64,000 nucleotides of DNA from sequence record OM982647. The stretch is one strand, 5' to 3'. The translations under genes and the position numbers were made by a program. The notes under the pieces were generated by a model that made no database searches, was not told the origin of the DNA, and saw only the letters and a program-made list of their open reading frames with translations. This stretch comes from Escherichia phage ST2. This document shows, piece by piece, positions 878 through 57,484 of this stretch. Position 1 is the first letter of the stretch; each line of letters begins with the position of its first letter.

Positions 878-895
878 GGGAGACTTCGGTCTCCC
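878..895 (+). terminator. stem-loop GGGAGAC-UUCG-GUCUCCC followed by short U-run (putative intrinsic terminator after gene 8)
   Basis: Perfect 7-bp inverted repeat with UUCG tetraloop, 5 nt after the gene 8 stop; identical 18-mer recurs three more times in the window. Confidence 0.6.
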
Positions 896-18635: not shown

Positions 18636-20204
18636 ATGACTACTATCAAAACTAAAGCTCAGCTCGTAGACAAATGGAAAGAATTGCTGGAAGGTGAAGG
18701 CCTGCCGGAAATCGCTAATAGCAAGCAGGCTATTATCGCTAAAATCTTCGAAAACCAGGAAAAAGATTTCGAAGTATCCCCTGAATATAAAGACGAGAAA
18801 ATCGCTCAGGCATTTGGTTCTTTCTTGACCGAAGCTGAAATTGGTGGTGACCACGGTTATAATGCTCAGAACATCGCAGCAGGTCAAACCTCTGGTGCAG
18901 TAACCCAAATTGGGCCGGCAGTTATGGGTATGGTTCGTCGTGCTATTCCTAATCTGATCGCTTTTGATATTTGTGGTGTTCAGCCTATGAACAGCCCTAC
19001 CGGTCAGGTATTTGCTCTCCGTGCAGTATATGGTAAAGACCCTATCGCTGCTGGCGCTAAAGAAGCTTTCCATCCGATGTATGCCCCAGACGCGATGTTC
19101 TCTGGACAGGGTGCTGCTAAGAAATTCCCAGCTCTGGCTGCCGACACTACTACTGTTGTAGGTGATATCTATACTCACTTCTTCCAAGAAACTGGTACTG
19201 TATATCTGCAAGCTTCTGCTGTCGTAACACTTGATTCTGGTGCAACTGATGCAGCTAAATTAGATGCTGAAATTAAGAAACAAATGGAAGCTGGTGCACT
19301 GGTAGAAATCGCTGAAGGTATGGCTACTTCTATCGCTGAACTCCAGGAAGGTTTCAACGGTTCTACCGACAACCCGTGGAACGAAATGGGCTTCCGTATC
19401 GACAAACAAGTTATTGAAGCTAAATCTCGTCAGCTGAAAGCAGCTTACTCCATCGAATTGGCACAAGACCTCCGTGCAGTACACGGTATGGATGCTGATG
19501 CTGAACTGAGCGGTATTCTTGCTACTGAAATTATGCTAGAAATCAACCGTGAAGTTGTTGATTGGATTAACTACTCGGCACAGGTTGGTAAATCTGGTAT
19601 GACCCTGACTCCGGGTTCTAAAGCTGGCGTATTTGACTTCCAGGACCCGATTGATATCCGTGGTGCTCGTTGGGCCGGTGAAAGCTTTAAATCTCTGTTG
19701 TTCCAGATTGATAAAGAAGCAGTTGAAATTGCTCGTCAAACCGGTCGTGGTGAAGGTAACTTCATTATCGCTTCCCGTAACGTAGTTAACGTACTGGCTT
19801 CAGTTGACACTGGTATTTCTTACGCTGCACAGGGTCTGGCTTCTGGTTTTAATACCGACACTACTAAGTCTGTATTTGCCGGTGTACTTGGTGGTAAATA
19901 CCGCGTATACATCGACCAGTATGCTAAACAGGATTACTTCACCGTTGGTTACAAAGGCGCTAACGAAATGGATGCAGGTATTTACTATGCTCCTTACGTT
20001 GCACTTACCCCACTGCGTGGTTCCGATCCTAAGAACTTCCAGCCGGTAATGGGCTTTAAAACTCGTTACGGTATCGGTGTTAACCCGTTTGCTGAAAGTT
20101 CCCTGCAGGCTCCAGGTGCTCGCATCCAGTCCGGTATGCCGTCTATCCTGAACAGCCTTGGTAAGAACGCTTACTTTAGACGCGTCTACGTTAAAGGAAT
20201 TTAA
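18636..20204 (+). CDS. 23: major capsid protein gp23
   Basis: 522 aa (T4 gp23 is 521 aa); MTTIKTKAQLVDKWKELLEGEGLPEIANSKQAII... N-terminal propeptide and body as in T4. Confidence 0.98.
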   Translation: MTTIKTKAQLVDKWKELLEGEGLPEIANSKQAIIAKIFENQEKDFEVSPEYKDEKIAQAFGSFLTEAEIGGDHGYNAQNIAAGQTSGAVTQIGPAVMGMVRRAIPNLIAFDICGVQPMNSPTGQVFALRAVYGKDPIAAGAKEAFHPMYAPDAMFSGQGAAKKFPALAADTTTVVGDIYTHFFQETGTVYLQASAVVTLDSGATDAAKLDAEIKKQMEAGALVEIAEGMATSIAELQEGFNGSTDNPWNEMGFRIDKQVIEAKSRQLKAAYSIELAQDLRAVHGMDADAELSGILATEIMLEINREVVDWINYSAQVGKSGMTLTPGSKAGVFDFQDPIDIRGARWAGESFKSLLFQIDKEAVEIARQTGRGEGNFIIASRNVVNVLASVDTGISYAAQGLASGFNTDTTKSVFAGVLGGKYRVYIDQYAKQDYFTVGYKGANEMDAGIYYAPYVALTPLRGSDPKNFQPVMGFKTRYGIGVNPFAESSLQAPGARIQSGMPSILNSLGKNAYFRRVYVKGI

Positions 20205-20233: not shown

Positions 20234-20251
20234 GGGAGACTTCGGTCTCCC
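20234..20251 (+). terminator. intrinsic terminator GGGAGAC-UUCG-GUCUCCC + U5 after gene 23
   Basis: Perfect 7-bp stem with UUCG tetraloop followed by CAUUUUUGG, 30 nt after gene 23 stop; same 18-mer as at 878, 42737 and 57467. Confidence 0.75.
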
Positions 20252-41300: not shown

Positions 41301-41491
41301 AGTCTTTTAAGGCTTTTGATAACTTCTAATTCAGAACTCATGCGAACGTCTTCAGTTCCATCGACCCATAGGACGGTGTAGGCTTCTTTAATTTGAGTAT
41401 TACCTAATTTAAAAGCAGGTAGAACCTTTGAAATCATTCCAGGAATACCTATGCCTTTTAACTGGACTGTTTGCGATAAAAATAGTTGCAT
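41297..41491 (-). CDS. hypothetical protein (64 aa)
   Basis: ATG-initiated ORF overlapping neighbours by 1-4 nt in the early operon. Confidence 0.5.
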   Translation of the reverse strand: MQLFLSQTVQLKGIGIPGMISKVLPAFKLGNTQIKEAYTVLWVDGTEDVRMSSELEVIKSLKRL

Positions 41492-41778
41492 TAGAACCTC
41501 ATCTGGAACCCGTGTGATTTAACATTACCACCGTAGATGTCAGAGGTATTGACTTCACGGGCGGCACTATGGACGATATTGATATCGTGGTTGAGCTTAG
41601 TGATTGCTAAGGTATCACGGCCGTTAACAGTACGGAATTCTACCGGGCACACAACATCAGCATAAGCCTTAATAGATTCACGAGTAGGTTGTTTGTCGGC
41701 AGGAACGTCTTTACCTGCTTTAGAGAAAACAACTTCACAGAAATTTTTACGAGTATCGAAATAAGTGGTCATAAACAT
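41491..41778 (-). CDS. hypothetical protein (95 aa)
   Basis: ORF-track frame 41491..41811; the first 11 codons are the terminator hairpin at 41794-41809, so start set at ATG 41778 preceded by GAGGAAAA. Confidence 0.55.
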   Translation of the reverse strand: MFMTTYFDTRKNFCEVVFSKAGKDVPADKQPTRESIKAYADVVCPVEFRTVNGRDTLAITKLNHDINIVHSAAREVNTSDIYGGNVKSHGFQMRF

Positions 41779-41793
41779 AATATTTTCCTCAAA

Positions 41794-41809
41794 GGAGGCC
41801 GAAGCCTCC
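41794..41809 (-). terminator. UUCG-tetraloop stem-loop after the 121-aa ORF
   Basis: Minus strand GGAGGC-UUCG-GCCUCC followed by UUUGAGG; 10 nt after the stop at 41819. Confidence 0.5.
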
Positions 41810-41818
41810 ATTTTAAGA

Positions 41819-42630: not shown

Positions 42631-42736
42631 TTTATTCTCCGGTTGTTTTATTGATTAGGTGGTACAAGTCTATAGTAACACATCCTACAGGAGAGTAAAC
42701 ATCTTTTTAAACTTTTTCTGCCCTAAACGCACAAAA

Positions 42737-42754
42737 GGGAGACCGAAGTCTCCC
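42737..42754 (-). terminator. intrinsic terminator GGGAGAC-UUCG-GUCUCCC + U-run after the small basic protein gene
   Basis: Same 18-mer as after genes 8, 23 and 32; on the minus strand followed by UUUUGU. Confidence 0.7.
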
Positions 42755-42759
42755 TAAAA

Positions 42760-42939
42760 TTATGCAACAACCTTTCCAAAACGAGAAGCATCATCTCGAA
42801 GAACTGCACGTGCTCTGCGCATGATCTTCTCAACTGTTTGATTAATACGAGAGTTCGACCCACGCTTGTATCCAGCGCGTTTAGAGGTACCATCAACTTT
42901 CTTTTCAACTGCTTTCTTTGCTTTAGCTTGTTTTGCCAT
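42760..42939 (-). CDS. small lysine/arginine-rich protein (59 aa); not in the ORF track
   Basis: ATG 42939 with AAGAGA 8 nt upstream; MAKQAKAKKAVEKKVDGTSKRAGYKRGSNSRINQTVEKIMRRARAVLRDDASRFGKVVA; TAA at 42760-42762 followed 5 nt later by the strong GGGAGAC terminator. The overlapping track ORF 42723..42908 is in another frame and looks non-coding. Confidence 0.5.
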   Translation of the reverse strand: MAKQAKAKKAVEKKVDGTSKRAGYKRGSNSRINQTVEKIMRRARAVLRDDASRFGKVVA

Positions 42940-43152
42940 TATAAATTCTCTTTAAATGAAAATGCAGGACTTATTGACATTGCCTGCGCAAGCCCTCAAG
43001 GGGAACATAGGTTTTGAATATTTACCGACAGGATAACCATAAACCCGTCATCATACCAACCACGACTTAGACAGATAACCTTTTTCTGACGCGTGATAGT
43101 ACAAAATACATTCAAGAGGTACACCGTAAAACTGCCGGGGTCTTAAAACTAT

Positions 43153-43170
43153 AATGATTCGCAAATCATT
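43153..43170 (-). terminator. stem-loop after rIII
   Basis: AAUGAUU-cgca-AAUCAUU, 33 nt after the rIII stop, followed on the minus strand by AUAGUUUUAAG. Confidence 0.4.
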
Positions 43171-43202
43171 AATCAGACAGTTCGACGGCTCCTCGATTTA
43201 AC

Positions 43203-43451
43203 TTACTTCAGGGTAATAACAAAATGACGTACTGCTTTACGAGCCGCAGAAGCCAAAGGCTTAGCATATTTCAGTTCATCTTTTGCTTCCAGTTCAGAGG
43301 CCAATACAGCTTGGGCAGGGTTCAGATGTTTGAAATAACGCAGGATTTCCAATGCTTCGGCTTCAACATCAATAGATGCACCGTAGTTTTCGTGACCATT
43401 ATTCCATGCGTTTCGTTGCAGTTCAAGAGCGTGTTGTAATTGTTTAATCAT
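43203..43451 (-). CDS. rIII: rIII lysis-inhibition accessory protein
   Basis: 82 aa, same length as T4 RIII (MIKQLQHALELQRNAWNNGHENYGASIDVEAEALEILRYF…). Confidence 0.93.
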   Translation of the reverse strand: MIKQLQHALELQRNAWNNGHENYGASIDVEAEALEILRYFKHLNPAQAVLASELEAKDELKYAKPLASAARKAVRHFVITLK

Positions 43452-44263: not shown

Positions 44264-44845
44264 TTATTCACCACAAAAGTTTCGAATTTGTTCCCAATTC
44301 AGAGAACGAAGATTATTACGAGAGTACTGAATTACTTCAATACCAGCTTGTTTTAGAATGTCGGCCCAATTTTCAGGAGATCTGTCATATAATTCTGCGT
44401 ATACAACCTTTTTAATACCTGACTGCGTAATAGCTTTAGTGCAATCAGGACACGGAGAAAGCGTAGTATATAACGTAGCACCTTCAATAGAATTACCTTT
44501 ACGAGCTGCAAACAAAATTGCATTCAATTCCGCATGGATTTCATTATTAGCAGACCATGCACTATGAGCGGCCCGATGTTCTTTAGCCAAAACAAAATTA
44601 TCCACCCGTCCAAATGCTGTAGTGCCTTCTTTATGCCCAGCAACGATGACCGGGCTTGGTTTATTCTTCAACCAACCGTTTTCGGATGCATGTTCGCAAC
44701 AGTTTGTACCACCTGAAGGAGAGCCATTATAACCTGTAGAAATAATGCGTCCATCTTTTTCAATGACGGCACCAACTTTCCATGAACAACATTTTGATTC
44801 TTGAGAAATCAGATATGCAATCTGAAGGTATGTGCTAGCTTTCAT
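44264..44845 (-). CDS. cd: dCMP deaminase
   Basis: 193 aa, same length as T4 Cd; zinc-binding deaminase motifs HAELNAI and SPCPDCTKAI. Confidence 0.95.
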   Translation of the reverse strand: MKASTYLQIAYLISQESKCCSWKVGAVIEKDGRIISTGYNGSPSGGTNCCEHASENGWLKNKPSPVIVAGHKEGTTAFGRVDNFVLAKEHRAAHSAWSANNEIHAELNAILFAARKGNSIEGATLYTTLSPCPDCTKAITQSGIKKVVYAELYDRSPENWADILKQAGIEVIQYSRNNLRSLNWEQIRNFCGE

Positions 44846-57466: not shown

Positions 57467-57484
57467 GGGAGACCGAAGTCTCCC
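57467..57484 (-). terminator. intrinsic terminator GGGAGAC-UUCG-GUCUCCC + U-run after gene 32
   Basis: Same 18-mer as at 878, 20234 and 42737; begins 7 nt after the gene 32 stop; followed on the minus strand by UUUUGAG. Confidence 0.75.

Follow-up and report, generated by a model that had tools for sequence, protein, structure and literature searches.

Autoregulatory pseudoknots are known from several mRNA leaders, among them those of T4 gene 32 and of the E. coli genes rpsO (S15) and rplT (L20). Hairpins closed by a C(UUCG)G tetraloop are reportedly frequent between T4 genes, as Tuerk et al. are said to have described in PNAS in 1988. Likewise, PeSL cassettes, which join an early promoter to a stem-loop, have reportedly been found in T4-type genomes by Arbiol, Comeau, Krisch and colleagues in 2010. 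The closest described counterpart of the locus studied here is gene 30.9 of T4, which the T4 record places at 130364..130540 with a product of 58 aa. We analysed a stretch of 64,000 nt from Escherichia phage ST2 (OM982647), called the window in the following, in which a preliminary description had proposed a gene for a basic 59-aa protein. On balance we favour the reading that this gene is a genuine, dispensable early accessory gene, which forms the last cistron of a rIII-30.9 unit and encodes a probable polyanion binder; we hold this with moderate confidence.

Identity and reading frame of the 59-aa gene

The proposed ORF is present exactly as described, with 59 codons running from an ATG at 42939 to 42760 on the minus strand and with a product rich in Lys and Arg, which reads MAKQAKAKKAVEKKVDG...RFGKVVA in the ORF listing and MAKQAKAKKAVEKKVDGTSKRAGYKRGSNSRINQTVEKIMRRARAVLRDDASRFGKVVA in full. 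The gene and the elements that precede it are the following:

42760 to 42939, minus strand: coding sequence of gene 30.9 (59 aa, 6.56 kDa, pI 11.35), ATG start and TAA stop
42948 to 42953, minus strand: Shine-Dalgarno-like AAAGAG, read from the sequence, 8 nt before the AUG
43203 to 43451, minus strand: rIII, from the ORF listing and annotated in RB69, PhAPEC2 and T4; upstream of 30.9 and in the same direction

The 59-aa protein is 100% identical to RB69 gp30.9 (AAP76119.1) and ~95% identical to T4 gp30.9 (NP_049823.1, 58 aa; UniProt P17310), and it matches PHROG 1427, a family of unassigned function, over residues 1-57 with E = 2.4e-31. Its gene is flanked by rIII and 30.8 and shares their strand in the window as well as in RB69, PhAPEC2 and T4. 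The RB69 record labels the same CDS "gp30.9 conserved hypothetical protein", and the PhAPEC2 record lists it as PhAPEC2_200, similar to T4 gp30.9. The window DNA is 96-99.7% identical to Mosigvirus genomes (RB69, PhAPEC2); its source is, by this measure, an RB69-like Mosigvirus. Relatives of gp30.9 fall into 65 clusters and occur in 1006 phage records (tblastn), the hosts of which include Escherichia, Klebsiella, Shigella, Enterobacter, Yersinia, Salmonella, Serratia and Citrobacter, among others. Judged by homology, the 59-aa ORF is the ortholog of T4 gene 30.9. The homology search and the comparison with the small T4 30.x ORFs, both of which had been suggested as checks, thus end at gene 30.9 and PHROG 1427, and the view of an unlisted, missed gene has to be given up, the gene being publicly annotated as 30.9 in T4, RB69 and PhAPEC2. 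In itself the finding of 30.9 is the re-discovery of an annotated gene and matters little.

The absence of 30.9 from the ORF track is probably due to the default cut-off of that track, which according to the tool description is 60 aa and thus just exceeds the length of the protein. A chance ORF of 61 aa with a TTG start (42723..42908, minus strand), which overlaps 30.9 in the +1 frame, clears the same cut-off and was probably listed instead for this reason. A cut-off of 60 aa can therefore hide genuine phage genes while listing spurious overlapping frames.

The choice between the two frames was put to conservation across related phages, which had been named as a possible refutation and which came out in favour of the basic frame. 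A set of 40 IMG/VR contigs together with RB69, PhAPEC2 and the window provided 37 distinct coding sequences, and the 35 of them that align over their full length entered a pooled Nei-Gojobori analysis. Here, pN/pS is 0.415 in the 30.9 frame, compared to 1.27 in the +1 and 1.37 in the +2 frame, while the antisense frames are either rich in stops or show pN/pS near 1. Variable columns at codon positions 1, 2 and 3 number 37, 29 and 54, the last of these out of 62 third positions. Every frame other than that of 30.9 carries stops in relatives, and the +1 frame used by the 61-aa ORF is broken by stops in 27 of the 35. Purifying selection is confined to the 30.9 frame, which settles the frame question for the basic ORF.

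The start codon is equally well defined. As a stop lies in frame 4 codons 5' of the ATG, no N-terminal extension is possible in the window. A start of the form M(A/S)K is kept in all 37 distinct loci, 12-19 residues before an invariant SKRAGYKR motif. The N-terminal extensions that some entries carry (97 aa in total for T4 P17310, 68 aa for Klebsiella phage calls) share no common conserved sequence, and the frame of the T4 extension is disrupted by single-base indels between T4 and the window. Comparison of the loci hence confirms the gene model of 58-59 aa over that of 97 aa, although UniProt P17310 still gives the 97-aa "11.1 kDa" form. This entry, as well as over-extended or mis-named calls in many genomes (e.g. 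"1,4-alpha-glucan branching enzyme"), reads through non-coding leader RNA. The proposed ribosome-binding site was likewise recovered in the form of AAAGAG, which agrees with AAGGAG at 5/6 positions and would be of moderate strength; relatives carry GGAAGA in its place.

The protein and its possible partners

With 10 Lys and 8 Arg (18 K/R) against 5 D/E, gp30.9 has a net charge of about +13, and it contains no hydrophobic segment. Its invariant motif can be written SKRAGYKR-SN-R, and the residues S19, K20, R21, A22, Y24, K25, S28, N29, R42 and V46 are invariant. An AlphaFold model (mean pLDDT 66.6) predicts a Lys/Ala-rich N-terminus of low confidence, a short helix across the SKRAGYKR motif and a long helix at residues 29-54 with pLDDT 82-88. 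No Pfam or NCBIfam domain was detected, a PDB profile search found no solved relative (best E = 0.12), and Foldseek returned 0 matches against the PDB. Matches to MreB-like_C (E = 0.14), YbaK (E = 0.034) and SlmA (E = 0.12) in the Pfam, NCBIfam and PDB profile searches are insignificant and were put down to chance. A profile search of 1.84 billion representatives yielded 17 proteins, of which 16 are small and basic with the same layout and one, a repetitive protein of 617 aa, is spurious; none of the 17 ties gp30.9 to a known family. Nucleic-acid binding is thus plausible from the composition of the protein, with no support from domain, solved structure or fold. From charge and architecture we give slightly less than an even chance to the more specific notion that gp30.9 binds a polyanion, most likely RNA; such a charge is not specific, and a small protein carrying it might just as well attach to an acidic protein of the host or to the surface of a membrane.

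What is known about expression and importance of the gene comes from T4. The T4 30.9 transcript is classed as early, and in a time-resolved proteome recorded by mass spectrometry the protein class is NA, i.e. not detected (PMC9697503, Table S2). This non-detection is weak evidence, since a K/R-rich protein of 58 aa is expected to be missed after trypsin, and it lends no support to abundance either. Knock-down of T4 30.9 by CRISPRi-ART gave a score of 0.04 (p = 0.26, "Not Fit"; function listed as unknown), the score of the neighbouring T4 gene 31 being 4.1 (PMC11879866). By analogy with T4, 30.9 of ST2 would be transcribed early and be dispensable. A 2003 paper in Biologija on the in-vivo expression of rIII and 30.9 is cited in PMC9409239, so that experimental work on the gene does exist; beyond it, our literature search found no functional study of 30.9, nor did it find a ribosome-profiling data set for T4.

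The main alternative, which we consider less likely, is a partner other than nucleic acid. Hereby gp30.9 would bind a host or phage protein or a membrane, for instance as a partner of RIII in lysis inhibition or by inhibiting a defence or an enzyme of the host. Linkage to rIII, which lies upstream of 30.9 in 36 of the 37 distinct related loci, is in line with such a role, although gene order is conserved throughout T4-like genomes, which makes the linkage weak evidence. That the gene is early and dispensable in a laboratory host is what one typically sees with host-specific accessory genes; many of the small early proteins of T4 inhibit a host defence or enzyme, and the Pfam, NCBIfam and PDB searches gave no nucleic-acid-binding domain. 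However, the lack of a hydrophobic segment speaks against this view, and a charge of +13 over 59 residues combined with an Arg-rich helix appears more typical of RNA binders.

RNA structure in the rIII-30.9 spacer

rIII and 30.9 are separated by a spacer of 263 nt that contains a series of RNA elements:

43061 to 43095, minus strand: hairpin Z, CAGA-AAAAGGUUA-UCUG inside CACG...CGUG, from the fold
43007 to 43049, minus strand: module B, H-type pseudoknot with stem S1 GACGGG/CCUGUC, stem S2 UA[U]GGUU/AACCUA and A-rich loop GGUAAAUAUUCAA
42993 to 43003, minus strand: module C, short candidate hairpin CCC-CUUGA-GGG, followed by a conserved GCUUGCG
42964 to 42987, minus strand: hairpin P4, GCAGG/CCUGC, ending ~25 nt before the AUG

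The 121 nt that directly precede the AUG occur in 767 phage records, and in 739 of these the identity is at least 90%. This leader is present in one copy per genome and is either unannotated or hidden under over-long "hypothetical protein" calls. Across distant genera the spacer splits into small modules, the order of which differs between genera. In six related loci (L020, L030, L031, L033, L038 and L040) the modules begin right at the stop codon of rIII or already overlap it, which leaves no room for a separate promoter and implies co-transcription of rIII and 30.9. In ST2, read-through from rIII would follow the same pattern.

The strongest evidence for structure was obtained for module B. 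Here, the loop of S1 pairs with the sequence that follows a conserved A-rich stretch, GUUAAAUAUCCAA, and thereby forms S2. Both stems vary widely between lineages: S1 appears elsewhere as GUCGUAG/CUAGAC, GUGGA/UCCAC or GGCGAGG/CCUGCC and S2 as UUGGUAG/CUACUAA, UUAGUAGUU/AACUACUAA, GAUGG/CCAUC or, read by hand in L037, UUGUGAG/CUCACAA. Covariation was evaluated after plain MAFFT alignment of 26 distinct sequences, with pairing partners slid by 1-3 columns and 500 shuffles as controls. The predicted partners pair in 82% of cells (S1 87%, S2 78%), compared to 34-52% in the slid controls, and cells with double changes number 58 versus 8-16. Double changes affect 8 of the 13 pairs, and none of the 500 shuffles reaches the observed pairing or covariation score. 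S2 is imperfect in the lineage of the window, and its support comes from other lineages. G-U pairs are found only in the orientation in which 30.9 is sense, which argues for an RNA rather than a DNA feature. With a covariance model built for module B, a single match was obtained in the window (42999-43057, 63 bits), and 39 of 41 related loci likewise have one copy upstream of 30.9; the other two are an incomplete locus and the divergent L044. Covariation thus shows module B to be an H-type pseudoknot. By thermodynamic folding the leader does not stand out (z = +0.8), and support for the structure comes from covariation only.

The remaining elements differ in how clearly they can be recognised. 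Module C, with only 3-4 bp, is a weak hairpin candidate, the variants of which in other lineages read GCC/GGC, GCU/AGC and CCUC/GAGG. At the position of P4, relatives carry a hairpin with other stems (GGGAGC/GCUCCC, GAACUGG/CCAGUUC, GUGGAG/CUCCAC, GGCGA/UCGCC), which were read from the sequences by eye, as the P4 strands of different lineages are out of register in the MAFFT alignment of the C/P4 region. The stem of hairpin Z is CAGC/GCUG in L006 and L033, and the hairpin is absent from T4. Many phages of Klebsiella, Enterobacter, Citrobacter and Serratia type possess in their spacer an additional multi-helix RNA of ~135 nt, module A, for which compensatory changes were seen in 18 of 40 predicted pairs; neither the window nor T4 contains it.

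Comparison with known RNAs did not yield a relative. Rfam gave no match to the leader at E <= 1 for six loci or at E <= 10 for the window spacer. The Rfam matches Atu_C8, sroE and BSR0709 are terminator look-alikes, and snoRNA-like matches are due to chance. The idea that the pseudoknot series resembles tmRNA was dropped, as ARAGORN found no tRNA or tmRNA, and resemblances to preQ1-I, the hammerhead, a C/D box and the GAAA receptor find no support in Rfam or in the way the sequences vary. An alternative pairing of the window lineage, AGGGCUUG/UAAGUCCU, is not kept in L029 or L038 and was rejected on these grounds. The spacer RNA has no similarity to E. coli genomes, i.e. there is no sequence-level sign of host-RNA mimicry. 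In the part of the literature covered, no description of the spacer pseudoknot or of the other structures was found; among the features of this locus, it is the pseudoknot that appears to be new, a structured RNA left unannotated in the best-studied phage family.

As to their role, the spacer RNAs could serve as a 30.9 operator, as a stabiliser or processing site of the mRNA, or as a platform to which gp30.9, RIII or ribosomal protein S1 attaches; binding of S1 by RIII is reported in the title of PMC9409239. A wider reading, which we regard as doubtful, is that the rIII-30.9 region of T4-like phages, T4 included, houses an undescribed modular RNA family, comprising the ~45-nt pseudoknot and the ~135-nt RNA, that is coupled to gp30.9. 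The pseudoknot would then belong to essentially every rIII-30.9 genome, and the RNAs may act as binding platform for gp30.9 or as translational operator. If this is true, spacer RNA and gp30.9 would constitute a new phage RNA-protein regulatory module.

We consider unlikely a narrower version of the favoured reading, namely that gp30.9 binds the pseudoknot and hairpins of the spacer RNA and thereby exerts feedback on its own mRNA, in the manner of T4 gp32 with its leader pseudoknot and of the ribosomal proteins S15 and L20 with theirs. The strong covariation of module B, its G-U pairs restricted to the sense orientation, its single copy in the 64 kb of the window and upstream of 30.9 in nearly all related loci, and the small, basic, ribosomal-protein-like character of gp30.9 are what such feedback would lead one to expect. 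Yet these data establish co-occurrence of pseudoknot and 30.9, from which any link between protein and leader would have to be inferred. Moreover, the order of the modules changes between genera and in some lineages they lie >200 nt from the AUG, which fits independent stability or processing elements equally well; the divergent L044 homolog is preceded by a short, plain leader, and the ribosome-binding site is not obviously buried in the structure. Should the spacer RNA nonetheless regulate gp30.9 or be bound by it, it would provide a handle on a conserved gene of unassigned function.

Terminator, 30.8 junction and comparison with known systems

Downstream of its stop codon, 30.9 is followed by two further elements:

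42725 to 42755, minus strand: predicted intrinsic terminator, 8-bp stem AGGGAGAC/GUCUCCCU with UUCG loop, then UUUUGUGCGUUU; from the RNA fold
42672 to 42700, minus strand: putative T4-early-type promoter of 30.8, GTTTAC, 17 nt, TACTAT; read from the sequence

The hairpin contains the 18-mer GGGAGACTTCGGTCTCCC (42737-42754, minus strand), which begins 5 nt after the TAA stop and leads into the U tract UUUUGUGCGUUU. In the centroid fold it is the dominant element (-14.1 kcal/mol), and the PhAPEC2 annotation includes it on the basis of ARNold; a generic scan of the window for sigma-70 promoters and terminators listed neither this terminator nor the promoter-like site of 30.8. The 30.9 stop is followed, at a distance of ~3-12 nt, by a GC-rich hairpin with a U tract in 36 of the 37 distinct related loci. 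At least four different stems were found, all compensating (GGGAGAC/GUCUCCC, GGACUCC/GGAGUCC, GGGAACC/GGUUCCC and GGGGCUCC/GGAGCCCC), and the loops are UUCG, UACG, UAUG, CGAA or 5-6 nt long. Stems and loops therefore vary while pairing is compensated, which points to selection on structure. This supports the view of the hairpin as a conserved intrinsic terminator, termination itself being predicted.

According to the preliminary description, the same 18-nt hairpin, GGGAGAC-UUCG-GUCUCCC, also follows genes 8, 23 and 32. This is borne out: the window contains four exact copies, with 0 expected from 100 shuffles, which are located 5 nt past gene 8 (ends at 873), 29 nt past gene 23 (18636-20204), directly after gene 32 and after 30.9, the three other genes having been located by alignment to RB69. 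Its designation as a "structural-gene-type" terminator, in contrast, does not stand, given that relatives use other stems after 30.9, that no fewer than nine other hairpins of the stem-UUCG-stem kind, all GC-rich in the stem, are scattered over the window, and that the 18-mer, matched by sequence alone, occurs in >120 IMG/VR stretches on contigs of 4 kb to >300 kb from many samples. The four identical copies hence point to a generally favoured sequence rather than to a speciality of these genes, and an 18-mer that is so widespread says nothing about abundance.

Consequently, we consider it highly unlikely that 30.9 encodes an abundant nucleic-acid-binding protein whose abundance is signalled by the terminator in common with genes 8, 23 and 32. 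The identical 18-mer behind those genes and the very basic nature of gp30.9 agree with this idea. However, a terminator fixes the end of a transcript and not its output, the stems behind 30.9 differ in relatives (GGACUCC, GGGAACC, GGGGCUCC), and AAAGAG is only a moderate ribosome-binding site. In addition, the T4 transcript is early, unlike those of the late genes 8 and 23, the T4 protein went undetected and knock-down had no fitness effect. Taken from T4 and not from ST2, these data leave the inference of high abundance unsupported. The chance that the 61-aa ORF is the true gene, or a second, overprinted one, is practically nil: the window and its close relatives do have this frame open, but it evolves with the pN/pS and the stops given above, passes through the terminator hairpin, starts at a TTG with no spaced ribosome-binding site upstream and has no PHROG or Pfam match.

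The GTTTAC element recurs 30-55 nt past the terminator in most related loci, and promoter activity at 42672..42700 may be inferred from it. Terminator and promoter would then form a junction at which the transcription unit ending with 30.9 gives way to one that begins with 30.8. For a dispensable early accessory gene at the end of a rIII-30.9 unit, the following course of events can thus be envisaged. Transcripts that run through rIII or start behind it would cross the 263-nt spacer with hairpin Z, pseudoknot B, hairpin C and hairpin P4. Ribosomes would start at the AUG at 42939, guided by AAAGAG, and produce the 59-aa, 6.6-kDa protein with its net charge of ~+13. The hairpin with the UUCG loop, 5 nt beyond the stop, and its U tract would end transcription, after which a fresh early-type promoter would serve 30.8. 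The protein is predicted to consist of a disordered Lys/Ala-rich N-terminus, the invariant SKRAGYKR-SN-R and one long, amphipathic, Arg-rich helix. It would most likely bind a polyanion early in infection, RNA being likelier than DNA, and would tune phage growth rather than be required for it.

Among the systems described at the outset, the leaders of gene 32, rpsO and rplT resemble the spacer in that a covarying H-type pseudoknot precedes the gene of a small basic protein. They differ from module B in that there is no relation by sequence or Rfam, in that position and order of module B relative to the AUG vary between genera, and in that protein binding is hypothetical here. With PeSL cassettes the 30.9/30.8 junction shares a stem-loop at a gene boundary, followed within ~50 nt by a promoter of the GTTTAC early type, and this arrangement is kept in most relatives; the likeness considered here is one of layout. 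The C(UUCG)G terminators are matched more directly by a GC-rich stem closed by C-UUCG-G with a U tract right after the stop, several of which exist in the window, with the difference that in this genome four copies are identical over 18 nt. The closest agreement is with T4 gp30.9 itself, for which start, size, position between rIII and 30.8 and the downstream terminator all match, with no substantive difference.

RNA modules between rIII and 30.9

The spacer between rIII and 30.9, the gene of the 59-aa basic protein, is a patchwork of small RNA modules, of which Z, B, C and P4 are found in the window and A, X and Y in other loci. Module order varies among genera (B-C in the window, C-B in the related locus L031, B-A-C in L011), and there are lineages in which modules extend over the stop codon of rIII. 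The elements concerned are:

42940-43202 (-), rIII-30.9 spacer with small RNA modules
43007-43049 (-), module B, an H-type pseudoknot in this spacer, with covariation
43108-43132 (-), conserved 25-nt block GTTTTACGGTGTACCTCTTGAATGT
L011, about 1250-1390, module A, a multi-helix RNA of ~135 nt between rIII and 30.9

Both helices of the module B pseudoknot show strong covariation, and it lies 5' of 30.9 in 39 of the 41 related loci. Its covariance model matches 42999-43057, the single copy in the window. Module A, with a sequence running CGGCAAGUGCAUGC...ACAGAUAAGAG, is carried by L011, L024, L037, L045 and 15 further loci, in each case between rIII and 30.9; neither the window nor T4 has it. 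Here, compensatory changes occur in 18 of the 40 predicted pairs, a GAAA/UAAA-loop hairpin within the module covaries, and internal pseudoknots are probable. Neither module B nor module A matched a family in Rfam.

The 25-nt block, common to the window, T4, L024 and L029, shows similarity to module A's 3' end (AACGGUGUGCAAC...). Judged by its sequence in the window (TTTACG, 16 nt, TATTTT), it could act as a weak early promoter; against this reading, the block adjoins module B in T4 and L029 and is there devoid of a recognisable -10 element.

Gene models and a divergent homolog

UniProt entry P17310 (97 aa, "11.1 kDa") stretches 30.9 into the non-coding leader (T4 130541-130660, L046), and numerous calls in GenBank, 68-102 aa long, likewise run into it. 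The name "1,4-alpha-glucan branching enzyme, GH-13-type", which several records give the gene, is evidently an annotation-pipeline error. Other coding sequences concerned are:

44264-44845 (-), dCMP deaminase, 193 aa
L044, 1495-1773, divergent 92-aa 30.9 homolog, Pseudomonas phage PspYZU05 type

The deaminase comprises 193 aa in the window and PhAPEC2 compared to 169 aa (510 nt) annotated in RB69, which is a difference in start-codon annotation. The L044 homolog keeps the N-terminal half with SKRAGYKR and carries a long Lys/Ala/Pro-rich C-terminal tail; its locus shows no rIII neighbour, pseudoknot leader or clear terminator.

UUCG hairpins and the junction after 30.9

878-895 (+), 20234-20251 (+), 42737-42754 (-), 57467-57484 (-), four identical 18-nt UUCG hairpins
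7277, 14222, 23588 (-), 26981, 38054 (-), 41794 (-), 51386 (-), further stem-UUCG-stem hairpins
42672-42755 (-), terminator hairpin, then a GTTTAC-type early promoter-like site

The further hairpins have different stems, likewise GC-rich, and several are followed by a U tract; the one at 41794-41809 (-) falls within the first codons of ORF 41491..41811. The 18-mer of the four identical hairpins also terminates 30.9 in other genera (L015, L040) and is present in >120 IMG/VR stretches among the matches listed. It seems to be a terminator sequence that is favoured in general or can be exchanged. The arrangement of hairpin and GTTTAC-type site is found again in most related loci, and the junction presumably resembles the promoter-stem-loop cassettes of T4-type genomes.
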